Positions 35,068 through 59,126 of a stretch of DNA of 64,000 nt are shown in pieces; positions within the stretch are counted from its first letter, which is position 1; every line of letters begins with the position of its first letter. A program made the translations under genes and the position numbers. Source of the DNA: Antedon mediterranea. Lineage: Eukaryota > Animalia > Echinodermata. The notes beneath the pieces are model-generated. The model was not told the DNA's origin and ran no database searches. It saw only the letters and a list, made by a program, of their open reading frames with translations. The stretch lies in contig NC_092676.1 of assembly GCF_964355755.1 (NCBI RefSeq), positions 6,425,888 to 6,489,887 on the forward strand. The letters run 5' to 3'.

Positions 35068-36291
35068 ACTAGATTTGAACTCGTCACTACGGACGAGTTA
35101 GGTTATCCGCAGTCCTAAAGCCACGTGCACGTCATACGTTGGAATATTGCGCGCAGAAAAACGATTATGCCATTGAAAAAATGTGAGTGCGCTCTCTATT
35201 TTGTGTCACGTCAAAGTGTATACGGTATACACTATATACCGTATACGTACTACATACTGTTCAGAATAGGTGAAAATAAGTGACCAAAGTTATTGACGCT
35301 TTTGGACATGATGACGTCATCACAATTTTTAAAATGGTGAATCGTGCGAAAGATAATTGATAGACCTAGACAATATAAAAAAAATGGGGGGAAATGGAAT
35401 ACAAATAAGTGAAGATGCGCTATATTAAATGTGACAAGCTACGAGGAAAGAGACAAAAATCCTATATTTTATATTCGAGTGGCCATATGATGACGTCACA
35501 ATGTCCGGTTAGCCATATTGATGCATGATTTGATATCTGCAACTCATCTACTACCAGAATATGTAATTATAAAAAAGTTCACCACGTAGTTTAGAATTTA
35601 TGACTGTTTAAAAAAAGGCATAATTTTGACTAATTTTTGAACTTTTTCATCAAAAATGCGCGTAAATTGTTTAATTCTACGTGTTCGTATGACGTGATTT
35701 TAAGTCGAAATTGTTTGAAAGTTGGTAAATTTTCTAAAAAAGACAGGAAAAACAAAAATCAAGCAAAAAAATGATGTTTTTGCGCTACGTGCGCACGTGC
35801 GCGTAAAAAAATTGCGCACGCTTGGGAATTTTTGAAATGCTCAAAATGACATGAAACGCGTAGAAAGTTGATTAGATATTGATTTTTCGCATTTTGAAAT
35901 TTTAAACGCGCGTGCGCGCGTAACTTTTTATAAAACATGCCATTTTTAATCCATAGAAAGTTTGCGCATTATATGACTTAAATGTTCACCAAGTTTCAAT
36001 ACAAAATGAATTTTAGTTTTTAATCTATGATCAATCATTGAAATTCATAAAATCACGCGTAACTTACGCTGCGCAACTCCGAAATTGTCCAAAAGCTTGG
36101 CTGCACATCTACAGCTACAGGTCAATCTTATGACAAAGTTATACAATGTTATATTTGCCAGAATTAGAGATATGCGACCAACAAAATTCGTGGAAAGAAA
36201 GAAGAACAAAGAAAAAGAAAAAGAAAAAAAAAAAAAAAAAAAAAAAGATCCTGACAATAACAAGGGGTTATCCGCCAAGTGCGGATAACCA
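35068..36291 (-). mobile_element. HINE subfamily D unit 21 (complete)
   Basis: D-type 3' end; cap GGTTATCCGCcaagtGCGGATAACCA. Confidence 0.88.
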
Positions 36292-36476
36292 ATAATACAG
36301 AAAAAAATATTGATCCCATACAATAACAAGGAGTTATCCGCCAAGTGCGGATAACTAAAAAGTTGATGTTGATGATTTCGTACAATCACAAGAGGTTATC
36401 CTGCAACTTCGTTGCGGATAACCAAATATTGATCCCATACAATAACAAGGAGTTATCCGCCAAGTGCGGATAACTA
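36292..36476 (-). repeat. Stack 2: three orphan 5' caps (B1, B2, B1)
   Basis: Sequences match the caps of complete units 13 and 14. Confidence 0.92.
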
Positions 36477-37854
36477 AATAGTATGCCTTCTACTGTTCCT
36501 AACTATAGGGGGAGAAGGTTTGAAAATAAAACTAACTTCTTTTAGACCAAATGAGCGAACAACTGTATCCACACAACCTTGCTTTCCAAAAATCACCTCT
36601 TTTATCAACGCATTATTCCTCCTGGTTAGTTATGTCCAATGACATTATTTGTGTGTCCACTTTTGTAACCAGACACGTCAATGGGAATAGGTCCAAAATG
36701 TTGCATGCCACTCAGTCTTTCAAGATGTTTTTCTTACAAATGTTCTTAGTACCCTCATCACTAGGAAGGACATATCCTGACCTGCACAAAAAATATGTAA
36801 TATCTACAAAACAAACATGTAAATACATCACATTAATATTTATGAAAATACACTAATTATTAACCATTTATCAATTTTCAATTGCAGAATTCCCATGTCT
36901 GGATTATTTTGGCTCTAACGGCCGCCCGTAACCTTGGTCATCCGGGGTGTGGTATTTGCTTATTGTAAGCGAGACAATTATATTCATACTACTTTGGCTG
37001 TTCCTGTTAAATAAAGTTTTAATATAAATCTAAGGATTATATCGCAGTCTCCTACTAATATTGGTAAGTAATAGCCAGGTGCATAGTGGGGGTAAGTAAT
37101 ATTTATAGTACAGATCCTATTGAATTTGAATTGAACCTACTACAGCTTCCAGATAATCCACACACGCTTAGGAGAAATCAGGAAATGGCCGACAAGATGC
37201 AGGCCGGACTGACCTACATATTGAGTCAGGCACAAACTGGTAACGCTAGCTAGACGTTCGGGCTATAATATTTGTAAGGTCGAGTCATTTGTGACAACAA
37301 TAAAGACTGAACGCGTGTACCTAAATCAATTTGAGGTATAATTGGGCCCCCAAACGGAAAATAAGGTTGAGCTTTTCAAGTTTGTGATAAGGTATGTATT
37401 CATTTGACATCATCAGTTATCGGGGAAATAGAGAGAAAAAGTGACTCGCCGGCGTATGAAACCGTAGCGGGTGTAAATTCATTACAAACCATTCACGCTA
37501 GCCAATTTCCTATGTATATACACGGGAATCATGGCTTCGCCTTCCCATAACTGTTGTTGTCAATCTCATAAATTGGGTTGTCTTTGTATAGTGACATGTG
37601 AGGTACATTTCCCATAAACACCTGCTGACTTCTCCTAAATTGAATTGGCTTACTATGGCAACTTGGATTTCCGAAGTTCAATATTAATATTATTATTCAC
37701 AGACCGAGAATAAGTCATGGACTTTTCCAAACAGAAATATGTACATGGTGTAGTTATTACCGATGTTACATATGTATGTTCCGCTTAAGACAGATGGTCA
37801 AGGCACCTGTTATACAAAATAAAGACATATTGTTATTAACAATGACAACACTAT

Positions 37855-38441
37855 ATTATTACAGTAACGGACGACGAAGCCCTAACAAAATACAATGCAA
37901 TCCGTGGTAAGGTCGTGCCTCTGCCTACCTAGCTATATAGTAAAGTATACATTACAGGGCTGCTATCTAATATAGGCATATCTAGGAACAGTATATAATT
38001 CGAACCTAATTCAAATGATAACAATAAAGACTGGTGCATTGTATTGCCTATTTCAAATTGTTATGCACTGATGCACCTTACTCAATCAATTTTTTCCTTG
38101 TGTGTGTTTGATTTGTGCAGTGTAAGTACTTTACTTTGATAGTATGGACAGTTCTTAACATACACAATCAACACCGCACAACATGACTTTATATAAGTGG
38201 ACAAAATGACAAAACCCACAGTATCATCATCAACATTATTATTATTGTAGTATTTCATTACAGTAACAGACCAAGCTCTAACAAATAACATAAAAAACCG
38301 TGCTAGGGACATGCCGCGGCTACCTAACCAGATAGTACGGTATACAGTAAACGCCTGATACTTAACATATAAAGGCCTACCTAGGTACAGTGCACATTTA
38401 AAACATGTCGTAATTCAATTTAAATAACAATAAAGACTGGT
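37855..38441. repeat. Diverged ~185-bp direct duplication (37855-38035 / 38255-38441)
   Basis: ATTACAGTAAC...CCGTG...CTACCTA...ATAACAATAAAGACTGGTG occurs twice, ~400 bp apart. Confidence 0.65.
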
Positions 38442-39212
38442 GGTCATAATGTCATAACATATTTCTTTGTGCAATATTCCAACGTACATCGATTATTCTC
38501 TCTTTCGTTATTGTTCATCACATTTAACAGAGCTCATCTTGCTCATACGTATTCCATTTGCGCGAGATTTTAATATTGTCTACGTCATTCAACTATCTCT
38601 CGCATGAGTTAAAAATATTTCTTTTCTTATGACATCATCATGTCTAAAAATGAAAATAACTTGGGTCACTTGTTTTCAAATTTGAAATAACTTTCAATAT
38701 GTTAGCTCGTCAGAATCAAAAGTGGTAATCATCATTAAAACGTTGTTTGAAAGCTATTGGATTGCAGATACGAATTTATGTAATTATTTTGCCTATGAGT
38801 AGTTTATTCATCTTTGTCGTCAAAGTTATACACATTTCAAAGAGCGCTCACAGCGCTTCTTGGTGCCAAATTCTCTTCCAATTCTTATATTTATTTGCTC
38901 AATTCATTGTCTTTCGAAATTGTCATCTTCGAGTTTATTTTGATAATTCTATCATACAAAACAATTAGAACATGACGTGTGTCCCTAATTTCACCAATGC
39001 TACACTGTATATAGATATACAGTATATACTGTACATAACGTATATGGCATATCAGTAGGCACAACTGAGCACTACAAGCGTATAATGGGATGGCATACAT
39101 CTACATTTTCCGATTGTATGTTGACGTACGTGTATATCTAAACATATTAATGTCAATAAAATTAGAAAAATGATCACCTACAATTCGTCAAACTGACGAA
39201 TTAAATTCTAGT
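38440..39212 (+). mobile_element. Degenerate HINE fragment in opposite orientation with an A-type 3' end
   Basis: Ends AAATGATCACCTAC-AATTCGTCAaacTGACGAATT-AAATTCTAGT; the upstream part is the reverse complement of A/B bodies. Confidence 0.85.
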
Positions 39213-41424
39213 TTATCTTCTTATTGGTAAGTGAGATATAAACATTTTACATGTTCTTACCACTTGTGGTTGAAAGTCCATAAAGTATTCAGTGAACTGA
39301 TACTTGCAATAGACTCGTTATTTTTCTTTCAGATTGTATGAAATAGTAATTGATTGACTGCTTGCTGCCTGCTAGCATTACTGCTAAATCAGATGTACAG
39401 TTTGATTTATTTGGAACTATCTAAATAGTGTAAGTAAATGTTGTTTCACCAATTTACAATTACACAGGAATTGAGTGTTTAATTATTTCTATAGACTCAA
39501 TTAGGCATTCAATTCCACTGTGTGAGAAAAAATAGATTGTATTGAATTGGCACTTTACCTAATTATGTTTTGTCATTTTGAGAACATTCCTTACTTATTC
39601 AAATCTTGTTTGAAAAGCGTGTGGTATTGGCAATTTGTAACGCTGCTAGTGCATCGTATTTGGTTATTTTAAATGTGTTCGAACCGATACACCTTATTAT
39701 TATGTTGTTTTCCCCTTGCAGTTGTTTGATTGGTGCAGTGGAATTACTGTATGTTGATAGTACGGTGAGTTTCACAGATATACAGTCAACTTTGCCTAAG
39801 CTGACTTTGAATAAGTCGCAAAAGTCAAATATCTTCAAGGTAGCAATTCCTTCCTATAGTTTACCATGTTGCATTAGTATGATTGGTTTTTATGCATTGT
39901 TTACAAGACGTCAAATGTATTGTCTTTCAGTTTGTTGTATTTCTGACATCTAAACGAGAAGTTTACACCAGTTCAAATCCCGTAAGTGTAAGAATCCAAC
40001 AAATTAGTCGTTCTTCAAACTTCCCTTTATCTACAATTTCTGAAAATTTGTACAAGGAATACATGTTACTGTTAAAATATAACATCAGGTCATATGGCAT
40101 GTTTAAGATAGCAACAGACCAATGTTTCGTACAGTAATTCTCGTCAAACAGCCTCTACTTGACAGGCCTTTTTAATCTTCCTTCTGAGCCTATAAAATAT
40201 ATCAGTTATTTTAAAGTTTCCTTCAGGTTTTTAGTGGCACTTAACAGATCATGATTTAGTAAAAGGCAAATATGATAAATGTACTAAAAGTACTTGTATG
40301 TATAGGACTATTGTAGTATTATAATGTTGCTCTAATGACCTAAATAATGAATAAGATAATACACTCTGGCATTACTGTAATTTTGATACTTCTTATACCA
40401 CGATAACAATTTACGATAAATAGCTAAACATGTTATTTATAGAACACCTCCACATTGTAAATGATGAGGCCTATGGCATGGTACATAAATGTGGCACATA
40501 CAATTTATTGATATTATTGTGCTACTCCATTCCCATCGCGAGACTGGTGGCTTTGTTTTCAACTAATATTATTATTGAGTTTTTTTTCAGTTGCATTTAA
40601 TCATTGGGGATTGTTGACATTATATTTGGCTATTAACTTTGGTTCCGTTAAACCTTACAATTCTGTTGTTTTTCATTTGCAGTTGTTAATGTTTGATTAG
40701 TGTACTTGGCACGACTGTACGTTATTGTGATTACAGTAGAAAGGTACGGTAATATTAGTATGGTTCACATTGTTAGAATATTAGGTACAGATCGTGTATT
40801 GTGTTTAAATAAACGGCCTGCAGCATTTTAAACTTATAAAAAGGAGCGTTTATTAGCGGTGAACTGTACAGTCATACATAGGGCTTTCAAAGCCTAAATA
40901 CCAAGGTGCGTCGCAGAAAGTCACAATCAAACGTCATCATTTCCATACCAAACTACTTACTGCACCTAATTAACCCAACCAGGCCTACTAGATGAGCATT
41001 TCTATTGAATTACTACATCCTATGGTGTATCGACTTGTTTTTCAAGACCACATGACAAAGACTACATCAAAATAAGCGCTCACCGTTATTACCTTATCAC
41101 AGCTGCACAACACCGGGACTTCCTGTCCTGCCTATTATTTGTAAACAGGAGAATCCTATATTTATTAGGTATGCATGGACTGTTATACGCCAATAACATC
41201 AAAAATGGAGGAGGGAAGGTGTGGCGTTTATAAGACCCTTCAGTTTCTTTGGTCATAATGAAAATGGTACTTCAAATTTCATTATCATATTTCAACATTG
41301 TTTTATAAAGGTGGTTTAGATACTGTAGGTGAGGTACATCATTAGGGACTGCTGCATTGTATTTGGCTATGAAAAATTAGTTTGCACGGAAACATCTAAT
41401 TATTCCGTTCTTTTTCCCTTACAG

Positions 41425-41456
41425 GTGTGTGACTCGTGCAACGGAAGTTTGATACG
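41425..41456 (+). other. Candidate 32-nt 5'UTR exon of the RepHel transcript
   Basis: Polypyrimidine acceptor TTCTTTTTCCCTTACAG| and donor |GTAAGT. Confidence 0.4.
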
Positions 41457-42309
41457 GTAAGTGTACGAAATACAGGCAATTTCACCTTTACCTAACTTTG
41501 CTTAAGTCCCATATTTGCAAAGGCCACATTTCTTTCTAATTACCAATTCCTTACTGCAGTTTACCTTTCACAGTATATAATTATCGCCTGTAGGAGGACC
41601 ATGCTTAAAGTAGTTATTAACTAAACTGAATTCAATATTCTAAACCTATGTATAACGTTTGTATCTTGCGAACGGGGACATCAATTTGATTTACTATAAC
41701 AAATAAGCAATAAATATAGAAAAATATCTACGGTATCTATTATACACTGTATACCTTACATTTCAAATTGTCATGATAAAACAATACAATATAAATAATT
41801 GTGTGTTGTGTAATAATAATAAACCTATATGAAATAAATAAAACAAGTCTCAAGTGCTTACCAAAGAGATGTCTGCGTAACAAGTGAAGCTATAGCTATA
41901 GCTCAATTACTGTGATTACTACTGTACTAATAACCTTCTAAGTAACCCATAGTACAACTACCATTTCTATTGGTGGTCAGCCAACTTTAGGCTTCAAAGT
42001 AGCCCTTTTATGTTTACGTGAGCCTAAGCTACCTACACCCACATTAACATAACACATATGGTTGGCCACTTGCCCACTCGACACCCTTCAATTGATCCAA
42101 CCACAAACTACGGCTTGGATTGTCACTTTCACAATGTTAAATAAACCAAATTGATTATTGTTTTCATTTTATTTTCCAGTTTTGAAAACCCGATCTGCCA
42201 AACTTTGGAAGACACAGCACACATAACCACAATTAAAGCCAACTAAATATAGAAAATAAACAAAACCATACATACAAATTAATTACAAGTTAATACAAGT
42301 AAATACAGT

Positions 42310-42620
42310 ACAAGTGAAGACAAAGTGAACAAAGAAAAACTGAACAAAGAAAACTGAACACAGAAAAAGTGAACACAGAAAAAGTGAACATAGAAAAAGT
42401 GAACATAGAAAAAGTGAACATAGAAAAAGTGAACATAGAAAAAGTGAACATAGAAAAGTGAACATAGAAAAGTGAACATAGAAAAGTGACCATAGAAAAG
42501 TGAACATAGAAAAGTGAACATAGAAAAGTGAACATAGAAAAGTGAACATAGAAAAGTGAACATAGAAAAGTGAACATAGAAAAGTGAACATAGAAAAGTG
42601 AACATAGAAAAGTGAACAAA
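42310..42620. repeat. 14/15-bp minisatellite (AAAAGTGAACATAG)n
   Basis: About 20 tandem copies upstream of the ORF. Confidence 0.95.
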
Positions 42621-42629
42621 CTACAGAAA

Positions 42630-42870
42630 GAGTGAGCAAATTTTCCGAACAAGTGAACTAATTTTCCGAACAAGTGAACTAATTTTCCGAACAACTGAAC
42701 TAATTTTCCGAACAAGTGAACTAATTTTCCGAACAAGTGAACTAATTTTCAGAACAAGAGAACTTATTTTTAGAACAGTGAACTAATTTTCCGAACAAGT
42801 GAACTAATTTTTAGAACAGTGAAATAATTTTTAGAACAGCGAACTAATTTTTAGAACAAGTGAACTATCT
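42630..42870. repeat. 20/21-bp minisatellite (AACAAGTGAACTAATTTTCCG)n
   Basis: About 11 tandem copies sharing the AAGTGAAC core with the adjacent array. Confidence 0.93.
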
Positions 42871-42979
42871 TTTGTAGCCATACGTAACGATTTTTTATAG
42901 CATTTTACAGAATAAATAAATTAGTAATTGTTATAGAATTTGACACAAATTTGTGGTCTTGATTATTATACATACAGTA

Positions 42980-45900
42980 ATGGATACACAATTGATAACT
43001 GTTGTTGTTACTATGTTGTTTTTAATGTTGTTGTTAATGATGTGGTGTTTATGTACAAACCATAAAGACGTTACAAGTAAAGAGTACAACAACGACAACA
43101 CACCTGGTAAAGTTAATAATAGCATTATATATAAAACCGAGGTTACAGATGTACCCGATCAATGCTGTTTACCTACAAATGTCAAAAACGTAAGCACTCT
43201 CAACATGGACGAAAAAGATACACATACTGACATTTGTGAATTCATTAAAAAAATAGTTGATGACATCGTAAATGTTTCTTCTGGTACAGCGGTCGCCTCT
43301 GAGTTTAAGAAATGTGGCTTATGTAATATTGAATATATTGCAGATGAAAATTATGTGTCATGTGATTGTTGCAGTAAGTTTTACCATGTGACATGTGTAA
43401 GACAAATGTTTGAAGGCAAACTCTGTGATTCAAGAGTAATTTGGATCTGTTCGATGTGTGGAAATAGTAATTTTGCAAATAATATGTTGGGTGAGATAGG
43501 TATTGCGTGTCATTTTAATAGGTATATGATTCTAGAACATGATGAATCTAACGCTAAGTTTGAAGAATTTACGGAAAATGAACAGAATTGGAAGTCCAAC
43601 CAACGGAATGTAACAAAGACTAACACCAACTCACAATGCCAACAAACAGAAAGTGAAAATTCACTTGGTAGAGAATGGATTAAGGTAAGATCCAGGAAAA
43701 ATACCAGTAACAGAAAACAAGGGGGAAAAAAAAGAGGAAATAAGAACAGAAAAAAGCGTGTTATAAATGGTATAATTATTGAACTAGGTGTAACATATAT
43801 TGGTAAAGCTGTCAACGATTTCTATGAAAAACGAAACAAGAAACTGCATGAAAATGTGGATAGAGAAAAAATTCCAGACAATTCACAAACAATACTTAAT
43901 GAAAAGGTAGATGTTGATGTACATAGCCCTACGAGTGATGCTTCAGAAGTGACAACAATAACGAACACAATACAACAACTTTCTGGTGGTGGATTTAACA
44001 CGAAACAGCCACGGAAAAAAGGTCGTTTTGTCAAAAGGTCAAATAAAAAGAAATCACAAGAGGATAATGATAACCATAAAATGGATGAAGACATAAGTAA
44101 AAGTTTTATTTCAGATCACTTGGGTAATGATGACAATTCAAAAGTAATATGCAATGAAGACAACGTCTACAAAGTAGCTAGTGATGAACCAAAGAGTAAT
44201 AGCAAAATAAATCAACTAAGATTAGATAGTAGTTGTGATGTTACAGATCATGAAGTATTAATAATTGACGAGGAACAAACAAAAACATCCAAGGAAACAA
44301 TTAGGGAGAATACACGACCTACAAATAATTTTAAACAATATAATATGAATGATGATAACAGTGTCGATATTAAAGTTTCAACCAATGAATGCAAAATATC
44401 TGATGATAATACGAAAAACGTTGCGTCATTTAAGCAATACAAAAGTGTTGTAAACCCATGTAATAGTATTACTAATAATAGAACTATAGCACAGGGTAGT
44501 TTTAATCAAGGGCATTCTAGATTTGGCTATGCACGTGGTAAACAGTGTGTTGCAAATAGTCTTGTAGCTATTGTTTATTCAACAAAGAGGAATGGAAATG
44601 AATTTTATAAAAATGATCTTGACACAATATTGACACTTGGAAATGAGTTGTACTATTATATCCAAAAAGATTCCACTATGGATGAGGATCTTCTGATGAT
44701 TTCTGAACTGCCGAAAAAATTGGATATGTTAGATAGCAAATTTTTAATATCTCCCAAAGAATCAGTGTTTGGGATAATAGATGGGAGTCTTGAATCGATG
44801 GCTGAATATGGAGCCTTGTCATTAAAGCAAGCTCTTGAACAAGAATTACATCAACATGATGCCTGTTTCATGAATTTTAACAGAAGTACATTTGCTATTA
44901 TTAAACGTGTAAATGGTTTCCTTATATTTGATCCACATGCAAGAGATTGTGTTGGTTGTGTTAGTGAACATGGAAAGAGCATTTTAATTTATAGTACATC
45001 TTGGCAAGGTGTATACAGTTATTGTTTAAAGTTAGCAAGATCAATGAATTGTAATTTACATGAAACAGAGTTTGAACTGACGGGTGTAAATGTTCAAAAT
45101 GAATCTATGTTTTTATGTTCCTCTTCTTCTGTCACGTTAGATGATAATTGTGAACTAAACAACTCTGAAAATTGCGATGTTAATGCACCGGGTACATCTT
45201 CCCAGTTTAAATGTAGCAAAACATTACCTAACAACAATATTGATTCTACAATTAAAGACAACAAACATAGTAATAAAAAGGATGATGTTTCAACAAGTAA
45301 TGGATGTCAAACTGATGACGAAATTGAAATAGTTAATGTTCAGTATGGAGAGAGACCTGACAAGAATTTTAAATTTGTCCCAATTTTAGAAGCACAAAGG
45401 AAAAGTATGTGTCATAAAGTTGGCATTAATTGTGAACATACCGGTAGAAATTGTGGTATTAATCGAACAAGTCATATTGGACATCCTTGTCAAATTAAGA
45501 ATATTACGGGTGATGGTAATTGTTTTTATCGTGCAATTTCATATATTATTTCTGGGACTGAAAATAATCATTTAATTTTAAGAAAAGCAATTGGTAATCA
45601 TTTATTGGAAACTGACGACTTGTTTAGTAGTACATTAAGTGTGGAATATAGAACAGTTATGGAATATGTGATTAAAAAAAGAGTAATGGATAATGGAACA
45701 TGGGCTTCTAATACTGAAATAAGTGCAATGGCAAACTTGCTTAATACAGATATTTATTCATTCAATGATCAGCTTTTGACTTGGCAAATGTTTTCTGCAA
45801 AAAACCCTGGAAAAATTAATGAGGTTACAACTGACAACGGTATGTATATTCTATACACCAGAAATGTGCATTTTAATGTAGTGGAGTCTGTTGATTTCAA

Positions 45901-48900
45901 TTTAAATTATGTTCCGGAAACAATAACAATTGTGGATAGTGATGATGTGGATAGCTCCTCAGAAATAAGTGTAGACCCTAGTGTTATGAAAAATAATTTG
46001 ACAAAATATAACAATACACGGAAAAGAAAAGAAATTAGTCATGAAATACTTGAAGATGCTATAGGACCCAAACAGAAACGGAGTAAAAATTTCGAAGGAA
46101 GTTGTTCAAACAAAATAAAGACAATAAGAGATAATAAAACAACGATTGAAAGAAATAAACGACTTGAAAACAAAAAGCGAATGAGGACAACACGTTCAAA
46201 TGACAGTACAACGAATGTAGAGAAACATAATAAAGCGGAGGTACAACGAAAGAAATATAAAAATGATTCTGTATACAGAGAAGAAAAGAAACGTAAAGTT
46301 AAAGAGGCACAGAGAATAAAATATGCTGATGACAATTATAAATTGTCTAAAAGAAAGGAAAATCGAGAAAGACAACAGAAGGCGTACAGGTGTGACCCCA
46401 ATTATAATCTTAAAGTACGAAGTAAGATGAAACAAAATGACAACATTAAGTTGGATTATCGGACAACCAAGAAAGCTAAAAGTGTGCAATATTATAGATT
46501 GAATGAAAGGTTTAGGCAAAATTTAAAAGAGAAAAGAAAAAATAGATATCAAACTGATTTAATATTTAGACAAAACTTTAAACAAAACAATAAACAAAAT
46601 ATGGCACAAAAGTATATGAATAATTTACAATTTAGACAAAACCTGATTCAAAAACTAGCATCAAAGTATCGCAATAATTCAACATTCAGACAAAACCTTA
46701 GTCAAAAACTAGCAGCAAAGTATCGCAATAATTCAACATTCAGACAAAACTTAAAGCGGAAGTATCGAAGTATTTTGAAGCAAGACTTAGGAGAGAAATA
46801 TCGTATTGATTTAAAATTTCGTCAAAGTTGTAAGCAAAGGTTTACAGAAAAGTATCATAGCAACACAACATTTCGTCAAAGCTGTAAGAAAAAGTTTAAC
46901 GACAAATACCACAGTGATTCAAAATTTAAAACAAATTGTAATCAAAGATTTACCAAAAAATATCATGGTGATTCACTTTTCCGAAAAAATGTTGTACTAA
47001 AAAACATGAGGCATCGTAAAATACGGAGAGCAGAAAAGCGTAATTTTGAATTTGTTTTGCAAAACTTCAGAGAATCAACATCTCATGGTCCTGAATATGT
47101 TTGTTGCGTATGCTTTAAAATGTTATTCAAAAATCAAGTTGTCAAATGCACGAAAGCTAAGTACGAGTATAGGACATGTATAAATGAAAAATATTTACAT
47201 ATTTGCAACAATGAATGTAATAATCCTTGTCAATTTGCCAAATCACCAAGATGCACATTATGGATTTGTTTCACATGTCACAAGAAATTGCTGAAAGGTA
47301 AAGTCCCTGCAGAAGCCAATTCAAACAATTTAGAACTACAAGAAATTCCTCCTGAGCTAAAATGTTTAAATAATTTAGAGCAACATCTGATTGGATTAAA
47401 TATTCCTTTTATGAAATTAATGAATTTACCTAAAGGTGGACAGCATGGAATACATGGACCAGTTGTATGCGTACCATCAAATACTATTGAAACTGTAAAA
47501 ATTCTGCCTAGACCAGAGGCTGATGATCAGTTAATATCCGTAAAATTGAAGCGAAAATTGTCGTACAAAGGTTATTATAAATATAAATTTGTTAACACAT
47601 CCAATGTTATTCAAGCTCTTGAATATTTACAAGATCATAACAAATGGTATTTTGACGTAGCAATTGATGAAAATTGGCACAATTATTTGTCTAAAGAAAA
47701 CATTGAAAGTAAAACTACTAATCAACAAACATGTGTAGAAAACAATGAAGAAGAAGAAGAAGATCGATTGTGTGGTGTTGCGTTTGATACAAGTCTACAA
47801 CCTGTTGACAGGCGACAAAATTTAGTTGATGAATATTTTCGTGATATAATCTGTTGTGCACCATGTGAAAATAATAGCCCTATTGCATTATTAAGTAATG
47901 AAAACAATGAAGCAAAATCTTTTCCAGTACTATTTCCAACAGGTCAACCAACATTCCATGATACAAGAGATGTTAAGATAACACTTGGACGATACTTACA
48001 CAATAGATTAATGCATGTAGATAACAGGTTTGCAAAAAACACAGAATTTATATTTTATGCCCAATCTATATATGAACTTCAACAAATTTTATCAAGTATT
48101 TCCATAGCATTGCGAAAAGGTTCAAGTAAAAAAGATAATTTTAGTAAAGTAACTGTATCTGATTTAAAAAACATAAACAAAATTGAGGAGATTTTAAAAT
48201 CTGATAAAGGTTATAAATTTCTAAAACAAATACGTGGAACTCCACCTTACTGGCAAGCAACACAGAAAGATGTATTAGCAATGGTTAGACAGATTGGTAA
48301 ACCAACATTCTTTCTTTCATTCTCAAGTGCTGACTTACGTTGGAAAGAAATAATGACGACATTGTTGAGTCAAACAGGAGACCAAAGAAACATTGATGAT
48401 TTGGAATGGGCAGACAAATGTAATTTGCTAAAATCAAATCCAGTGACTGTTGCCAGAATGTTTGACAAACGCTTTCATACTTTTTTAAAAAAAGTTATTT
48501 TGTCTGAAACCCAGCCTATTGGTAAAGTCACAGATTATTTTTATAGAATTGAATTTCAAATGAGGGGAAGTCCACATGTTCATATGTTGGTATGGGTCGA
48601 AAATGCCCCTGTTTTTAATGAAGATGAAGATAAAAAAGTTATTGAATTTATTGACAAATATATTTCTTGTTCTGTGCCACGTCAATTTGTAGATTCTGAA
48701 ATGAATGAAATTGTTACCAGTGTGCAGATTCACAGTAAAAGACATTCGAAATCGTGTAAAAAGAAGGGAACAAATTGCAGGTTTAACTTCCCGAGACAGC
48801 CTTCTGAAAAAACATTTGTTATGAGACCTACAATTGTGGATAAAAACAATGATGATGATAATAATGATAATGATAATGCAAATAAACAAGCGCAAGAATT

Positions 48901-51900
48901 ATTAACCTCGGTAAAAAATGCTTTGACAAATGAAGAAACGTATCAAAGCGCCAAGGAACTTTTTCAAAGTTTAAATATTACTCAGGGTGCATATGAGGAT
49001 GCAAATAATTGTATAACTAATGAAGAAAAGATTGTTTTAAAGAGAAACCCCGAAGATGTGTGGGTAAATCAATACAATCCTTCCTTACTTAGAGCATGGA
49101 ATGCTAATATGGATATTCAGTACATTACCAGTGTATATGCATGTGTTACATATGTTATAGGATATATGTCAAAATCTGAACGGGAAATGGGCTTACTTTT
49201 ATCTCATGCAGCATCCGAAGTGAAAGAAGGAAATGAAAATGCCAGACAAAGCCTAAGTAAACTTGGTCATGTGTACATGAACAATCGAGAAGTATCTGCG
49301 CAAGAAAGTGTTTATCGTGTTTGTGGCTTGAGATTGAAAGAATGTTCAAGGAAAGTTGAATTTATCCCAGTAGGACCTAATCCTGTTAGAATGAGTTTAC
49401 CACTAAGTGTAATTAAAAACAAAGTGGATGATAATCAAAGTGCATGGTTGCCAAATAAGCTCGACAAATATAAAGCTCGACCAAATAATTCTGAATTTAA
49501 TACAATGTGTCTTGCAACATTTTGTTCTTATTACAGAATGTTAAGTACATCAGAAATGAAAGGAAACGTGCAAAGAAAGAACGTATTCCAGTTACAAAAA
49601 AAACTAGGATTCATCCAAAAAAGAACACGAACTGACAATGCTATAATAAGGTACCCTCGGTTTCCAATGAATACAGCATCTGAAAAATATTTTATGAGTA
49701 TATTGCAGTTATTTTTGCCATTTCGAACAGATAAACAGTTAAAACCATTGAAATTTCAAACATATCAAGAATTTTATGAGCTAGGATCTGTAAAATTATA
49801 TGGCAGTAAATTACAAAAAGTAAATGTTATAGTTGATGAAAACATGGAAAGGTATGACAAAACTGCAGATGCTATTAAACATGCAGAAGGGGTTTTAGCA
49901 AAATTTGGACCACAAGAAGATGCATGGGGTCTATTATGTCCGGAAAGTGAAAAGGAAAGATTAGAGAATCCAAAGCCAAATGTAGACGTTGATGATGAAG
50001 AAAATGAATTTTTTGTTCCAGATTTTGGCCTAAAAAAAAATGAAACATCTACAATAGAGTGTAACTCATCTAGTATTTCAAGACCGGAACTGAACAAAAT
50101 GATTCGATCTTTAAATAAACAACAAAAACAAATATTTTATAAGACAAGGCAATGGTGCTTGGATAAAGTTAATGGCAAACAACCTGAATCGTTTTACACT
50201 TTTATAACTGGAGGCGCTGGCACTGGAAAAAGCCATTTGGTTAATTGTATTTATAATGAAGCAACACGTATTCTCGGAAAAATGTTGGAAAATCCGGATG
50301 ATATGTCAATATTGAAACTAGCTCCTACAGGGATTGCAGCATATAATATTAAAGGTCATACCATTCATAGTGCTTTGTCTATTCCTATTCATATTTCACT
50401 TCCATATCAACCACTTGGAGAAGAAAAAATAAGTGCACTTCGTAATCAGTTAGGTCAATTGCAAATTGTTATTATAGATGAAATATCAATGGTAAATCAA
50501 AAGTTACTCTGGTACATCCACGGACGATTGCGGCAAATAAAGCAAGTACGTAATGATAGTGCATTTGGTAATATTTCAATAATTGCAGTTGGTGATTTTT
50601 ATCAGTTACCGCCTGTGAGGGGCACTTCTTTGTATAAAAACACATTGGAAAACTCATTATGGGTAGATAACTTTAAAAGAGTGCAGTTAGATGAAATCAT
50701 GAGGCAAAAAGAAGATAAAGAGTTTGCTGTACTTTTAAACAAATTGCGCACAAAAGAAAGAAATGATTGCTTGTCTGACAAAGATTTATCAGTTTTAAAA
50801 TCATGTGAAACAGGTGAACAATGTGACGATGCTGTTCATATATACCCATGTAATAAGCAGGTTAATGAATGGAATAAAACAATGTTGCATAAAACATGTT
50901 TAGATATTATATGCATTGAAGCAGAGGATACTGTAGTAAACAGCAAGAAACAAGACAAACATTGTGATAAACCTCGGAAATCATGTCAAACTAATTTATT
51001 AAATTATCTGTGGATTGCACTTAATGCCAGAGTGATGTTGATTAAAAATGTAGATGTTAAAAAAGGCTTAACAAATGGATGTATGGGACATGTGGAAGAA
51101 ATAATTAAGCCCAGTCCAAACGCTAAACCAATATCAATTAAAGTGAAATTTGATAACAAGGACATTGGTATTCAGGCAATTGAAATGTTTCAAGAATCTA
51201 TTGGAAAAAAATACAGTCGAAAGCAATTCCCACTCAAATTAGCATATGCATGCACAGTTCATAAAGTGCAAGGAATGACAATGAATAAAGCACTGGTTTG
51301 CCTTAAAAATACCTTTGCGCCTGGACAAGCATATGTAGCACTCAGTCGTGTTACCTCAATATCTGGACTTACCATTGAACATGTTAATTCTAAGTTGATT
51401 TATTGTGATCCTACTATAAAGGAATATTTAAACAAGATGAATTCATACATACAATGTGATAAAGAAGTTAATGATTCTGGTTCTGAATTTTCAATAATGT
51501 TACATAATATTCAAGGGCTTAAACAACATTTTGCTGATCTTCAGTGCAATGATTTGATTATGAATTCTACTACCATATGTCTAACTGAAACATGGCTAAA
51601 TAAGGATGATGATTTTGTTGACTTAAGTATAGAGCCGTATAAATTCTATCACCAAGCAAGATATGACTCATATTCTAATAAAAATGATTACTTAAAAAAT
51701 CAGGCTCATGGTGGAGTTGCAGTCTATACTAAGAACAAATTTTCAAGCAGGTTAGACATAGGTATTAACGACATAGAGGTAATTTCATTTTTAATAACAT
51801 GTCCAATTTCAGTTGCTGTATCAGTAATTTATAGACCTCCGAGCTATGATATTAAACAATTTTGTCAAAATTTGAGGAAGTTATTAAAAAAGGTGCATAA

Positions 51901-52138
51901 AGTAAGTACAAAATGTATCATAATGGGCGACTTTAATGAAAATCTTTTCAAACAACCTTCCAAAGTGAATATTTTAATGACAGAGAGTGGTTATCAACAA
52001 CATGTTACAAGTTCTACTACTGAAAGTAATACATTGATTGATCATGTATATAGCAAAGGTCTAGATTCAATGCAGGCACATGTAATTCCAATTTATTATA
52101 GTTACCATGAGGCCATTCAAATTAAATTTGGATTATAA
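42980..52138 (+). CDS. Helentron/Helitron2 RepHel polyprotein (PHD, C76-like DUB, OTU, Zn finger, HUH Rep, Pif1-family helicase, AP endonuclease)
   Basis: Uninterrupted frame (open from 42953, first ATG 42980). Motifs: PHD CGLC..CDCC..H..C..CSMC; GSFNQG..GKQC..FDPH; GDGNCFYRAIS..HFNVV; IRGTPPYW, PTFFLSFS, EFQMRGSPHVH, YVIGYMSK; GGAGTGKS, IIDEISM, GDFYQLPPV, TVHKVQGMT, YVALSRV; HNIQGL, LTETWL, IYRPP, GDFN, IDHVY, SYH. Confidence 0.95.
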   Translation: MDTQLITVVVTMLFLMLLLMMWCLCTNHKDVTSKEYNNDNTPGKVNNSIIYKTEVTDVPDQCCLPTNVKNVSTLNMDEKDTHTDICEFIKKIVDDIVNVSSGTAVASEFKKCGLCNIEYIADENYVSCDCCSKFYHVTCVRQMFEGKLCDSRVIWICSMCGNSNFANNMLGEIGIACHFNRYMILEHDESNAKFEEFTENEQNWKSNQRNVTKTNTNSQCQQTESENSLGREWIKVRSRKNTSNRKQGGKKRGNKNRKKRVINGIIIELGVTYIGKAVNDFYEKRNKKLHENVDREKIPDNSQTILNEKVDVDVHSPTSDASEVTTITNTIQQLSGGGFNTKQPRKKGRFVKRSNKKKSQEDNDNHKMDEDISKSFISDHLGNDDNSKVICNEDNVYKVASDEPKSNSKINQLRLDSSCDVTDHEVLIIDEEQTKTSKETIRENTRPTNNFKQYNMNDDNSVDIKVSTNECKISDDNTKNVASFKQYKSVVNPCNSITNNRTIAQGSFNQGHSRFGYARGKQCVANSLVAIVYSTKRNGNEFYKNDLDTILTLGNELYYYIQKDSTMDEDLLMISELPKKLDMLDSKFLISPKESVFGIIDGSLESMAEYGALSLKQALEQELHQHDACFMNFNRSTFAIIKRVNGFLIFDPHARDCVGCVSEHGKSILIYSTSWQGVYSYCLKLARSMNCNLHETEFELTGVNVQNESMFLCSSSSVTLDDNCELNNSENCDVNAPGTSSQFKCSKTLPNNNIDSTIKDNKHSNKKDDVSTSNGCQTDDEIEIVNVQYGERPDKNFKFVPILEAQRKSMCHKVGINCEHTGRNCGINRTSHIGHPCQIKNITGDGNCFYRAISYIISGTENNHLILRKAIGNHLLETDDLFSSTLSVEYRTVMEYVIKKRVMDNGTWASNTEISAMANLLNTDIYSFNDQLLTWQMFSAKNPGKINEVTTDNGMYILYTRNVHFNVVESVDFNLNYVPETITIVDSDDVDSSSEISVDPSVMKNNLTKYNNTRKRKEISHEILEDAIGPKQKRSKNFEGSCSNKIKTIRDNKTTIERNKRLENKKRMRTTRSNDSTTNVEKHNKAEVQRKKYKNDSVYREEKKRKVKEAQRIKYADDNYKLSKRKENRERQQKAYRCDPNYNLKVRSKMKQNDNIKLDYRTTKKAKSVQYYRLNERFRQNLKEKRKNRYQTDLIFRQNFKQNNKQNMAQKYMNNLQFRQNLIQKLASKYRNNSTFRQNLSQKLAAKYRNNSTFRQNLKRKYRSILKQDLGEKYRIDLKFRQSCKQRFTEKYHSNTTFRQSCKKKFNDKYHSDSKFKTNCNQRFTKKYHGDSLFRKNVVLKNMRHRKIRRAEKRNFEFVLQNFRESTSHGPEYVCCVCFKMLFKNQVVKCTKAKYEYRTCINEKYLHICNNECNNPCQFAKSPRCTLWICFTCHKKLLKGKVPAEANSNNLELQEIPPELKCLNNLEQHLIGLNIPFMKLMNLPKGGQHGIHGPVVCVPSNTIETVKILPRPEADDQLISVKLKRKLSYKGYYKYKFVNTSNVIQALEYLQDHNKWYFDVAIDENWHNYLSKENIESKTTNQQTCVENNEEEEEDRLCGVAFDTSLQPVDRRQNLVDEYFRDIICCAPCENNSPIALLSNENNEAKSFPVLFPTGQPTFHDTRDVKITLGRYLHNRLMHVDNRFAKNTEFIFYAQSIYELQQILSSISIALRKGSSKKDNFSKVTVSDLKNINKIEEILKSDKGYKFLKQIRGTPPYWQATQKDVLAMVRQIGKPTFFLSFSSADLRWKEIMTTLLSQTGDQRNIDDLEWADKCNLLKSNPVTVARMFDKRFHTFLKKVILSETQPIGKVTDYFYRIEFQMRGSPHVHMLVWVENAPVFNEDEDKKVIEFIDKYISCSVPRQFVDSEMNEIVTSVQIHSKRHSKSCKKKGTNCRFNFPRQPSEKTFVMRPTIVDKNNDDDNNDNDNANKQAQELLTSVKNALTNEETYQSAKELFQSLNITQGAYEDANNCITNEEKIVLKRNPEDVWVNQYNPSLLRAWNANMDIQYITSVYACVTYVIGYMSKSEREMGLLLSHAASEVKEGNENARQSLSKLGHVYMNNREVSAQESVYRVCGLRLKECSRKVEFIPVGPNPVRMSLPLSVIKNKVDDNQSAWLPNKLDKYKARPNNSEFNTMCLATFCSYYRMLSTSEMKGNVQRKNVFQLQKKLGFIQKRTRTDNAIIRYPRFPMNTASEKYFMSILQLFLPFRTDKQLKPLKFQTYQEFYELGSVKLYGSKLQKVNVIVDENMERYDKTADAIKHAEGVLAKFGPQEDAWGLLCPESEKERLENPKPNVDVDDEENEFFVPDFGLKKNETSTIECNSSSISRPELNKMIRSLNKQQKQIFYKTRQWCLDKVNGKQPESFYTFITGGAGTGKSHLVNCIYNEATRILGKMLENPDDMSILKLAPTGIAAYNIKGHTIHSALSIPIHISLPYQPLGEEKISALRNQLGQLQIVIIDEISMVNQKLLWYIHGRLRQIKQVRNDSAFGNISIIAVGDFYQLPPVRGTSLYKNTLENSLWVDNFKRVQLDEIMRQKEDKEFAVLLNKLRTKERNDCLSDKDLSVLKSCETGEQCDDAVHIYPCNKQVNEWNKTMLHKTCLDIICIEAEDTVVNSKKQDKHCDKPRKSCQTNLLNYLWIALNARVMLIKNVDVKKGLTNGCMGHVEEIIKPSPNAKPISIKVKFDNKDIGIQAIEMFQESIGKKYSRKQFPLKLAYACTVHKVQGMTMNKALVCLKNTFAPGQAYVALSRVTSISGLTIEHVNSKLIYCDPTIKEYLNKMNSYIQCDKEVNDSGSEFSIMLHNIQGLKQHFADLQCNDLIMNSTTICLTETWLNKDDDFVDLSIEPYKFYHQARYDSYSNKNDYLKNQAHGGVAVYTKNKFSSRLDIGINDIEVISFLITCPISVAVSVIYRPPSYDIKQFCQNLRKLLKKVHKVSTKCIIMGDFNENLFKQPSKVNILMTESGYQQHVTSSTTESNTLIDHVYSKGLDSMQAHVIPIYYSYHEAIQIKFGL

Positions 52139-53859
52139 TCTTTATATTAACTCAGATGTTTAATCTTAATCGGAATTGTTTTAAGGAAGGTTAAACAAAC
52201 TTATAAACAGAACTTTAATAAAGAAAATCATAAAACGAACATAAAATAGAACTGGATAAAAACAAACAAATTTTAAAAAGAACTAAAAAACAATAGCAAT
52301 TCTCTGCAGAAAGAAATACCCACTAAAACTAACATACTGTACGTGACATACAAGAATGTTATATAGGTTACATTTAATTTTTTTGGAATCCCATTTTAAT
52401 AGTACAGTATTATAGTTATTAATTATGTCTATAGTTAGGAAAAGTCTGGATCGAATCCAAACAGACGATATTTATTATAGTTATTATATAAGGTGTTGTT
52501 GTGTTGTTGTAAGGCCATTTCAAATTATATTGGGATTATAATCTTTACATTTATTCCTATGTCCTATTATTATGAAAAATTAAGAAAAAAAAAAAGAATT
52601 TTACAAACAGAACTTAATAAATCTTTCTTCATAGGAGACAAGCATAACTGCCAAAATCTGTATGGAGGAATACATTATTATCAGGTGAGTAAACCCTCAT
52701 GTTAGGGATTATTGGAATTAACGCCTCTATGCAGAGTAGTTTTCTGACTGCTCCGCCACCTTTGATATGAGATCTTTTCATATTTTGTGCGGTCATCTCT
52801 GGAAAAGATCTCGTTCGGAATAGTATTATCTCATTCACATATATATAAAATAATGAATTAAATATGAATTTCAAAAATGCTATGATACACAGATAGTGTG
52901 TATATAACAACCTCATTATCTATTAAATAAATAAGTTAATAAAACTGTTAAAAAAACATTTCATTTGATACGATTAACAATTTGATTAGACATATTTTAA
53001 TGTATACCTTTTTTATGGTACTTGTTTTTCTTTCTATTCAGATAGCATTTATAATAATTCAACACAAGTAGGCTTCTTATGCAAGTGTTACGGAGTGTAA
53101 TGAAATTAAATGGTTTCAAATTGTAATCAATGTTTGTGGTCAAGCAAAATGAGGTCCATTACAAGAATTGAAGACAGTCATAGATATATTTATAAAAGAA
53201 ATAATTACGGACTTCAGAAAAGAACCCTTTGTGCATAATTATGTTGTTATTGATGATGCTACTACCCGTAGAAGTATATTGCAATAGACAACACATTATA
53301 ATTATTGGTGTATTATTTTAATACAAATTGTATAAGTAAGGTCACATGTAGTGCGGCAACTTAAACAATACCGCGTAAAAATACTTTGATTATACGTCCT
53401 ATCATTATTTTTAATAAATGTGTTTATAAATAAATAGTCTTATAATTATTATATTTTAGCAAAAACAAATCTTTCTTTTGTACATATAATTCACTATTTA
53501 ATAGTTTCTTCTTTTATTTCCTCTTTATTTCCTTTTTTGGCTGCTTGTGTATCCTGTTTTTGTATTTATTTATGTTTTAGCTATTTTTTGGTAGTCCAAT
53601 GGCTAGTTTTATGACAGATAGAAGTGTTCACGTAGAGTATTCAATGCCACGTCTTGATGGCGAATTTTGCATAAACCAAAAAATTATCCATGTGAAAAAA
53701 TCAATATAATTGTAGGCCTAATATAATTGTTTATCCATAGACGAATTAATTTGCAAAATATGTGTATGATATGAAAAAAATATACAATTTTTATTATGTA
53801 AACTATTAAATGAAATGAGTTTAATCTACACAGTTTGAATAATTATTAACACACATTGT

Positions 53860-56009: not shown

Positions 56010-57477
56010 GTCAGTATAAACAGTTAAATATGTATACATAAATTATTATATACAGTGTAGAATAGGTAAAATTACGGGACCCGCCATTTATTCCAATTTT
56101 TAACATGGCGACGGTAACAAAATGAAACACTAAGTTAGCAATTTCGGAAGGAAATTATATCAGCAACAACATATTAACGTGTAGAAGAAATTTGAATACG
56201 TAAAATATAGATGCGCGCCCTTTTAAATGTGATGAACTTTGGCGTAAAATATGAAAATACGACTTTTTGTATTCAACTGGCCATATGATGACGTCAAAAC
56301 ATCTGATTGGCAAAATGTTTACATGATTTCGTATCTACAATCCAATAGCTTCCAGAAAACGTTTTAATTGTGATTATCACATTTTATTCTTACGAGCTAT
56401 AATATATTTAAATTTAATGTAAAGATGAAATTAATGCCACACGTAATATAAATTTTTAGTTATGATGACGTCATAAAAATTAAATTATTTTTAATTCATG
56501 CGAAAGATAGTTGATTGACCTAGACAATATCACAATCGGGGTGAAAATGGAAAACGGATAAGTGGAGATGCGCTCTATTAAATGTGATGAGCTATGACGA
56601 AAGATACAAAAATCCTATATTTTATATTTGCGTGGCTATACGATGACGTCACAATGTTCGGTTAGCCATATTAATACCTGATCCGATATCTACAACTCAT
56701 CAACTTCCAGAATATATCATCCACAAAAAGTTGACCGTGTAGTTTTGAAATTACGACTGTTTAAAAAAAGGTATACTTTTGACAAATTTTGACGAATTTT
56801 TGAACTTTTCCATCAAAAACACACGTAAATGATCCAATTCGACGTGCTCGTATGACGTAATTTTAAGTCAAAATTATTTAAAAGTTGGTAAAATTACTAG
56901 AAAAGGCTGGAAAAACCTAAATTACTCGAAAAAAATTGTTTTCAACGCTACGTGCGCACCACGCGCGTAAAAATATTCGCGCGCGTGGGAATTTTTTGCA
57001 TGCTCAAAATGACATGAAACGCGTAGAAAGTTGATTAGAAATTGATTTTTTGTATTTTAAAATTTTAAACGCGCGTGCGCGCGTAACTTCGTGTGAAACA
57101 TGCCATTTTTTTTCCACAGTCGGTTAGCGCAGAATATAAATTAAACTTTTGCTAAGTTTCAATTTAAATTGTTATATGGTTTTTGATTAATGTTAAATAC
57201 GCTAAATTCGTTAAAATGCGCGTAAGTCATGTTGCGCAATTCTGACGTCATTCAAAAATAAAAAAGCACAACTTCACGTGAATGCCCATATGTTGACAAA
57301 GTTATGAAATGTTAACTGTACACGTTTTTGAGATATGCTCTGCACAAAAATGACAGAAAGAAAGAAGAATACAGAAAAAAAAAAAAGATGATGAAACAGG
57401 ACAGTTACAAGGAGTTATCCGTGAAAGCGGATGAAACAGGACAGTTACAAGGAGTTATCCGTGAAAGCGGATAACTA
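56010..57477 (-). mobile_element. HINE-type 5' arm (subfamily E/B3) with cap but no adjacent 3' end
   Basis: B-like body from ~56010; cap GAGTTATCCGtgaaagCGGATAACTA with a 40-bp tandem duplication (57390/57430). Confidence 0.85.
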
Positions 57478-57596
57478 AAAAAGATGATGTTGATCTCGTA
57501 CAATCACAAGAGGTTATCCTGCAACTTCGTTGCGGATAACCAAAAATATTGATCCCATACAATAACAAGGAGTTATCCGCCAAGTGCGGATAACTA
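57478..57596 (-). repeat. Stack 3: two orphan 5' caps (B2, B1)
   Basis: Match the caps of complete B2 and B1 units. Confidence 0.92.
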
Positions 57597-59126
57597 ACTA
57601 GAATTTAATTCGTCACTTTGACGAATTATAGGTGATCATTTTTATCGCTTTACTGACATTAATATTTTTTAAACATGCACGTACGTTAACATACAATAGG
57701 AAAATGTTGATGTATACCATCCTGATATACGCTTATAGTGCTGAGTTGTGCCTATTATGTGTCATATACAATATGTACAGTATATACTGTATATCTATAT
57801 ACAGTGTAGCATAGGTGAAATTACGGGACCCACATCATGTTCAAATTTTTTGGTATGATGGAATTATCAAAATAAACTCAAAGATGACAATTTCGAAAGA
57901 TAATGAATTGAGCAAATAAAAATAAGGATTGGAAGATAATTTGACACGTAGAAGCGCAATGCGCGCTCTTTGAAATTTGTATAACTTTGACTAAAGAAAT
58001 TTAAAAACAACGTTTTAACTTCAACTGGCCATATGATAACATCACAACATCCGATAGGCTTAATTTTTATATTAATTCATATCTACATTACATCAGCTTT
58101 CATAATAAGTTATAATTTTCAAGGTCACCTTTAATTCTGAAGAGCTATAATATATTCAAATGTAAGGTGTAGCTGAAATTACACGACCTACGTTATTCAA
58201 GTTTTTACGCGTGATGATGTCATCAAAATAAAAATATTGACAACTCCTGAGAAAGATAATTAATTGAGCAAGCCCATCCTAAAATTTGTGCGCAAATCAG
58301 GCTCAAATAACGGAGATGGGCTCTGTTGAATGTGATAACCCACACAAAAACATAAAAATTACTAATTTTTAAATTCAAGTGGCCATTTGATGACGTCATA
58401 CCATTTTGTACGTCTAATGTGTATATACATTTATATCTACAACTTATTGGCTTCCATATTAAGTTAAAAAAATTAGGGGTCATCTTCCATTCTGAAGAGT
58501 TATATTCATTTTAAAAAGGCCTTAATTTTTACCATTTTTAGCACTTTTGTACAATTAATGTGCGCATTTTGTCATTTTTAACGTGCTCGTATAGCACTAT
58601 TTTAAATCGAAATGGACTCACAATTTACGCTTTCTAAATACGCACGTGCAAAAACGTGTTTTTGCGCAGTAATTTTTTAAAACACGCAAATGGCCTATTT
58701 TATGCTCTAAATTGATCAAAACTTAATTTTGAGCTTTTTAAAATTTTAACGCGCGATTTCACGTGCATGACCTTGAAACACGTAAGTTTTTATTTTTTAA
58801 TATTTTTACCCTTCACCTGAAGTTTACGTATAGTGAATTTTATTGATATGTGATAAAGAGTTATGGAGATATGATTTATAGTGTGATTTCACAAAATCGC
58901 GTATACGTGACGTCACGGTTGAGTGATAACGCTGAAAAGCTTATTATGGCTAAGTTAAAGTATTTGAAAGACACTGTGAATTTTTTGTGATCATTGCCAT
59001 TCAACTTTTTGAGATAATTGTTACACAAAAAGTGTACAGAAAGAATAAAAAAAAAAAAAAAAATAATAATAATAAAGATTTCATACAATAACAATAGGTG
59101 ATCATTTTATTCTAAATGATCACCTA
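57597..59126 (-). mobile_element. HINE subfamily A unit 22 (complete)
   Basis: Both termini present; small deletion near 58620. Confidence 0.9.

Follow-up and report, generated by a model that had tools for sequence, protein, structure and literature searches.

Does a transposon protein that carries two deubiquitinase-like protease domains and an LxGG sequence cut itself? This question is raised by a locus in a 64,000-nucleotide stretch of DNA (hereafter, the window) from the crinoid Antedon mediterranea, for which a preliminary description proposed a self-processing, virus-like polyprotein. All motifs on which that proposal was based fall in one open reading frame (ORF) of 3052 amino acids (aa) on the + strand (42980-52138). 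The domain order of the encoded protein is leader, VTD, OTU, Zn/DUF6570, Rep, Pif1 helicase and AP endonuclease, and Pfam placed Herpes_teg_N, OTU, DUF6570, Helitron_like_N, PIF1 and Exo_endo_phos above their cut-offs. Rep and helicase thus share one ORF (Helitron_like_N, 125 bits; PIF1, 97.5 bits). Specifically, DUF6570 and Rep are encoded at 47294-48592 (+), with the HUH motif FYRIEFQMRGSPHVH of the Helentron type, the Pif1-family helicase at 50111-51379 (+), with Walker A GGAGTGKS and Walker B IIDEIS, and the AP-type endonuclease at 51485-52129 (+; Exo_endo_phos, 36.5 bits; cut-off, 24.5). The C-terminal AP endonuclease, the F/Y-x-R before Rep motif 2 and the Ser in RGSP are those of Helentrons (HLE2), and motif 2 carries the FYR and RGSP signature that Thomas et al. 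2014 (PMC4067079) described for Helentron Rep. The element at 36478-52475 (+, ~16 kb, with approximate ends and an inferred 3' end) is therefore an intact Helentron, a rolling-circle transposon, likely of the crinoid Antedon. Its nearest protein was also from A. mediterranea (99% identity over aa 1-1000). Between OTU and Rep, at 46511-46750, the window contains basic repeats of 54 nt (18 aa) whose number varies among relatives.

The 5' end was placed at 36478, from which one contig of run X4 aligns, preceded by 909 letters from elsewhere. A candidate 5' subterminal inverted repeat of 13 bp (36496-36508, +) is an exact inverted match to 52429-52441; such a pair alone may be due to chance, and its location near both ends supports the pairing. 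The 3' repeat and an imperfect palindrome (52444-52466) form a candidate 3' terminus at 52429-52466 (+), with a weak hairpin (-3.3 kcal/mol over 52425-52490). Helentron/HLE2 elements feature subterminal repeats and a 3' palindrome, and they have the C-terminal AP endonuclease, FYR, RGSP, DUF6570, and Herpes_teg_N plus OTU upstream of Rep in common with the present element (PMC4067079, PMC11417382). In addition, short repeats with a terminal G+C hairpin, like the ends of non-autonomous rolling-circle elements, were found at 36239-36484 and 57384-57604, one of which abuts the 5' end of the Helentron.

Upstream of the ORF, a spliced non-coding 5' leader extends from a donor at 37063 to an acceptor at 42180 (+), with six introns and with exons at 39333-39429, 39722-39764, 39931-39981, 40683-40743 and 41425-41456; the ORF starts at the first ATG after the acceptor. 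Five short exons of 32-97 nt and one alternative donor look unusual in a DNA transposon. The splicing was seen as seven GT..AG joints with canonical sites in run X1 only and in none of X2-X4. X1 comes from a single study and was aligned at 88% likeness with 25-33 letters on the sides of each joint; it is taken as spliced RNA because of the joints alone, no run being recorded as RNA. An upstream coding exon was ruled out by in-frame stops before the ATG and by the size of the leader ORFs, which are at most 11 aa. The last leader exon carries tandem arrays of 14-bp and 21-bp units (42322-42867, +), and the read alignment has a gap at 42281-42879 in this repeat zone. The first intron contains a very high-copy repeat (38370-39354) with inverted relatives at 54-58 kb. 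The multi-exon non-coding leader and the PHD module described below do not figure among the Helentron/HLE2 features in the passages of PMC4067079 and PMC11417382 consulted.

As judged from sequence and modelling, each of the two protease domains belongs to a deubiquitinase type with a papain fold and has its catalytic residues intact. The VTD (peptidase C76/Herpes_teg_N) deubiquitinase domain lies at 44492-45097 (+; C523, D651 and H653), and the OTU cysteine protease domain at 45497-45889 (+; D845, C848, H964 and N966). Their presence is far beyond chance: Pfam matched Herpes_teg_N at aa 507-655 with 36 bits (cut-off, 25) and OTU at aa 844-927 with 39.9 bits (cut-off, 23.3). GSFNQG is located at aa 506, QC at 44543-44548, FDPH at aa 650, GDGNCF at aa 844 and HFN at aa 964. 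In a 66-row alignment, counting rows with a residue at the position, the VTD catalytic residues were kept in 40 of 41 rows (C523) and in 52 of 55 rows (both D651 and H653), and those of OTU in 57 of 60 (C848) and 42 of 45 (H964). A profile of 66 relatives had as its top match PDB 8ADD (E 2e-20), the zebrafish Helitron domain DrT1-VTD2, with whose Cys and D-x-H active site C523, D651 and H653 align; human OTU domains followed at about 1e-14. The OTU domain matched OTUD5, OTUD1 and OTUD3 by both sequence and fold. Since the single-sequence VTD model reached a pLDDT of only 34.5, an alignment-based model was used instead (mean pLDDT, 83.4), which consists of two confident domains and a disordered linker. 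The fold search with this model again returned 8ADD as the best match (E 5.7e-15, rmsd 2.4), followed by cytomegalovirus M48 and OTU domains. The two proteases, their catalytic residues and their papain-like folds are thus as the preliminary description had supposed.

It had also regarded the tandem pair as less familiar, which is no longer tenable. The pair is already published: Erven et al. 2022 (PMC9741609) reported 121 VTD Helitrons that also have OTU, one of which, zebrafish DrT2, was studied, and these, like the present element, have VTD and OTU preceding Rep-helicase-endonuclease within a single ORF. HELIANO (PMC11417382) lists both domains in HLE2. Both were present in 64 of 164 proteins among our collected relatives. 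In the study of Erven et al., Helitron VTDs were active and cut K48 and K63 ubiquitin chains; K48/K63 isopeptides were preferred, linear chains not being named in its text among the preferred types (PMC9741609). The zebrafish VTDs did not react with SUMO probes (PMC9741609), making the anti-SUMO activity suggested in the preliminary description unlikely for the VTD. DrT1-VTD2 cleaved the bare peptide RLRGG-AMC through E377 (PMC9741609), which aligns with E576 of the window protein and lends support to cleavage of a peptide; the adjacent D376 of the zebrafish enzyme is Ser in the window protein. As of the same paper, the activity of transposon OTU domains had not been tested.

The candidate processing site is LSGGG (L334-G338; 43979-43993, +), where a single cut would fall after G337 or G338. 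It is preceded by two Gln (from 43973), and three residues, FNT, separate its glycines from a basic NLS-like stretch, KQPRKKGRFVKRSNKKK (44003-44053, +), whose PRKKGRF core is conserved. LxGG occurs only here in the 3052 aa, against an expectation from composition of 0.33 (0.13 in the first 1000 aa); this count is near chance, so the significance of the site rests on conservation. Conservation was examined in the window protein and 28 relatives with the PHD module, obtained with a profile of the front module that matched 29 of 211 fetched proteins, one of which, the window's own record, was dropped. These module-bearers belong to four lineages, namely Antedon, ENA proteins, Diadema, and one ENA protein clustering with Strongylocentrotus; as many of the 29 proteins are near-copies, the weight of the comparison is that of four lineages. 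GGG was found in 27 proteins and AGG in one (P0206), and the site was missing from one (P0178, whose gene model diverges upstream). At the position of Leu, the 27 have Leu (21), Gln (4), Phe (1) or Ile (1). Because P0206 reads VHAGG, the pair common to all site-bearers is G337-G338, and LxGG is not an invariant register. Of the LxGG conservation whose absence would have spoken against the preliminary description, the glycines thus stood in both crinoid and sea-urchin relatives, and the strict register is uncertain.

The surroundings of the glycines are mostly divergent. No column among the 40 residues preceding the site is nearly invariant, and the lineages share 6-9 of these 40; the site thus appears to lie in an exposed linker, as judged from low complexity and divergence. 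Since this stretch varies in length and sequence, a ubiquitin-like fold before the glycines is unlikely by eye. Other short motifs of the same linker are as well conserved as the glycines, which may accordingly form part of a binding motif. Wherever a pattern located the K-K/D-G-R-F type motif (26 sequences; three were missed), the GG ends 6-10 aa ahead of it, and GG was present in 1.9% (281/14541) of 16-aa windows of distant linkers. The region is duplicated in P0009 and P0015, where the glycines are lost in one copy and kept in the other. Other GG pairs of the window protein are located at aa 248 or within the DUF6570, Walker A and endonuclease regions, and that at aa 248 is incidental, not being kept even in the 99% identical P0001. 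Note that P0206 is rearranged, with a PHD leader, a VTD remnant seemingly lacking the Cys, tandem repeats, VHAGG and the basic motif, OTU and a full-length VTD.

The glycines close a front module whose core is a PHD-type zinc finger (C4-H-C3, aa 112-160; 43313-43459, +). Its Pfam PHD score was 16.5 bits, below the cut-off of 24, and the protein atlas gave weak PHD leads only (best, 0.80); all eight ligands are invariant in 18 rows. Further downstream, alignment of relatives revealed a conserved leader motif, INGIIIELGVTYIGK (43763-43807, +). The N-terminus contains a hydrophobic helix (aa 5-25; 42992-43054, +), predicted from hydropathy to be a membrane anchor or signal, with the highest mean hydropathy of the protein (2.66 over 19 aa). 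The helix was present in five of seven Antedon relatives and in none of four ENA relatives, and Diadema models appeared by inspection to be without it. The membrane-tethered N-terminus of the preliminary description thus holds, as a prediction, for crinoid models and does not extend to the other lineages; accordingly, a cut could not generally serve to free the protein from a membrane. The codon of M76 (43205) is flanked by A at -3 and G at +4, and the Diadema and ENA models start near it. The sections of Erven et al. (PMC9741609) consulted describe neither a PHD leader with a conserved glycine motif, which in the crinoid copies here also has the hydrophobic helix, nor a processing site in Helitrons. 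What seems new is the conserved Gly-Gly motif closing an extra front module.

Sixteen Diadema models (P0164-P0167 and P0177-P0188; 388-588 aa) consist of the PHD leader alone, and most of them end or diverge about 30 aa past the glycines. Possible identities are the 5' halves of split Helentrons, non-autonomous copies and a short splice variant. Other Helentrons (P0073 of Oryzias, P0076 and P0082) have a different leader bearing a GDSH-type motif similar to that of SGNH esterases, suggesting that the N-terminal slot is swappable.

Outside the module-bearers, a family-wide LxGG signal was ruled out. The linkers of 152 more distant relatives, many of which are truncated models, had no excess of GG (52 seen; 48 expected), and among the 10 distant relatives whose first protease is preceded by 300 aa or more, none had LxGG and three had QxGG. 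On the other hand, of the 85 distant relatives that start with Met and have 60 aa or more upstream, 32 began with a basic stretch, often MPR/KK, compared with a background of 7.5%. PRKKGRF after the glycines resembles these basic starts, so that a cut would regenerate the usual N-terminus. At locus L006, a stop lies five codons ahead of a start of the basic type. This locus was the only one with Rep or VTD profile matches among 51 found in a metagenome scan with the full-length alignment; a scan with the leader alignment gave no relatives among 146 pattern matches. In a quick OTU tree of 61 rows with a midpoint root only, from which 12 near-duplicates and unnamed ids above P0080 were left out, all 10 module-bearing rows fell inside one 15-row branch (SH-aLRT, 100). 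The remaining five rows of the branch are models starting downstream of the module; when they are counted as module-free, the label needs four changes on the tree. We infer a single gain of the leader, placed ahead of an ancestral basic N-terminus, the glycine motif marking the junction. In the same branch, P0013 (Antedon) has its Met start at the basic motif itself, in which it resembles the predicted cut product. Among other proteins, the Antedon relative P0002 has its entire VTD-OTU cassette duplicated, and P0137, which has several VTDs, carries three Gly-Gly motifs in tandem close to its end, one of them RLRGGG; it may be a gene-model artefact.

On the sequence evidence, the reading to which we give the most weight, at somewhat less than an even chance, is that one of the element's own protease domains cuts the protein once at the glycine motif; it is only just ahead of the reading without any cut, and ahead of cleavage by a host enzyme. 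In such a mechanism, an echinoderm lineage would have fused a PHD leader before the ancestral basic N-terminus, and the element's VTD or OTU would cut once after G337 or G338, giving a leader of 38 kDa with Gly-Gly at its end and a VTD-OTU-Rep-helicase-endonuclease of 314 kDa (aa 1-1000 would split into 38 and 75 kDa). The 314 kDa product would begin like ordinary Helentrons, with a nuclear-type N-terminus, and in crinoid copies the cut would also free the enzyme from its predicted membrane anchor. By analogy with the zebrafish enzymes, the VTD would strip K48/K63 ubiquitin chains, plausibly shielding the transposase from degradation. Deubiquitination is likely the older job, because most relatives have the proteases without the site. 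The fuller proposal, that the echinoderm Helentron transposase is a precursor whose PHD leader, membrane-anchored in crinoids, ends in a self-cut ubiquitin-tail mimic, is more tentative than the cut as such. A self-cut is favoured by the presence of the site in 28 of 29 module-bearers of four lineages inside an otherwise divergent linker. Against it, the arginines held by VTDs are absent from the crinoid site, a nairovirus OTU is not autoproteolytic (PMC3968130), and herpes BPLF1 owes its release to caspase-1 and not to its own activity (PMC7464072). Basic clusters are also found before the site and after OTU, so that the stretch after the glycines is not the sole possible import signal.

Nearly as probable is the absence of any cut, with the glycine run and basic motif serving as a conserved hinge or as a binding or import motif. 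The proteases would then act on ubiquitin conjugates alone, and initiation further downstream, for example at M76, would yield a soluble form. Three glycines are kept rather than two, the register and the Leu vary, and the neighbouring motifs are equally conserved, which favours a hinge or binding motif; the context of M76, near which the Diadema and ENA models start without the hydrophobic helix, and the lack of the site in most VTD/OTU Helentrons point the same way. However, the motif sits exactly before an ancestral-type N-terminus and shares its chain with two Gly-Gly-specific proteases. It also resembles a ubiquitin-type tail, with hydrophobic residues at P7 and P4 and, in Diadema, Arg at P5. 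A 2A-like skip motif was not found in the leader of seven relatives.

The SUMO tail is QQTGG, and four Antedon relatives read QQQSGG, close to it; the site could then be cut by a host deubiquitinase or SUMO protease instead of the element, which we consider improbable. The failure of Helitron VTDs to react with SUMO probes (PMC9741609) would fit such a host enzyme, as would the 16 Diadema models in which the module occurs without a protease. Yet Leu is the common P4 residue (21 of 27), and Diadema models with deubiquitinase and Rep domains share a branch with the module-bearing elements, so that the module in Diadema probably represents the 5' half of such elements, split from the rest. As for the virus-like polyprotein of the preliminary description, in which several cuts would give separate protease, Rep-helicase and endonuclease proteins, the large multidomain ORF and its two proteases would suit it. 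The protein nevertheless has one LxGG only, its other GG pairs are unconserved (aa 248) or inside domains, and no GG lies between VTD, OTU and Rep. With one conserved Gly-Gly site, the precursor would be of at most two pieces, with both proteases remaining attached to the transposase; the polyprotein was thus overstated and is very unlikely.

Deubiquitinase folds that cut their own precursor are known from coronavirus PLpro (LXGG), arterivirus PLP2 and TYMV PRO (PMC7464072, PMC3968130). PLP2 and TYMV PRO, which process polyproteins (PMC3968130), have the OTU fold of one of the domains here. These are, however, proven cuts in RNA-virus polyproteins, whereas a single candidate site in a DNA transposon is at issue here. 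USP1 cleaves itself at a Gly-Gly (PMC8975806) which, like the motif here, is conserved within a deubiquitinase chain; it belongs to another protease family, and its cleavage is demonstrated and leads to degradation (PMC8975806), whereas that of the window protein is a prediction. In the open-access literature searched, no title or abstract opening concerned Helitron self-processing, and no paper combined a transposon deubiquitinase with LxGG.

Erven et al. 2022 (PMC9741609) proposed that Helitron deubiquitinases protect against proteasomal degradation. The present element offers a concrete second job for these enzymes, with one conserved site and two candidate catalytic cysteines. If there is no cut, it would be an ordinary VTD and OTU Helentron with a lineage-specific PHD leader. 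If the self-cut is true, it would be a self-processing rolling-circle transposase and, within the literature searched, would provide the first non-ubiquitin substrate for a transposon deubiquitinase; the element would then control its transposase by maturation, as viruses do.
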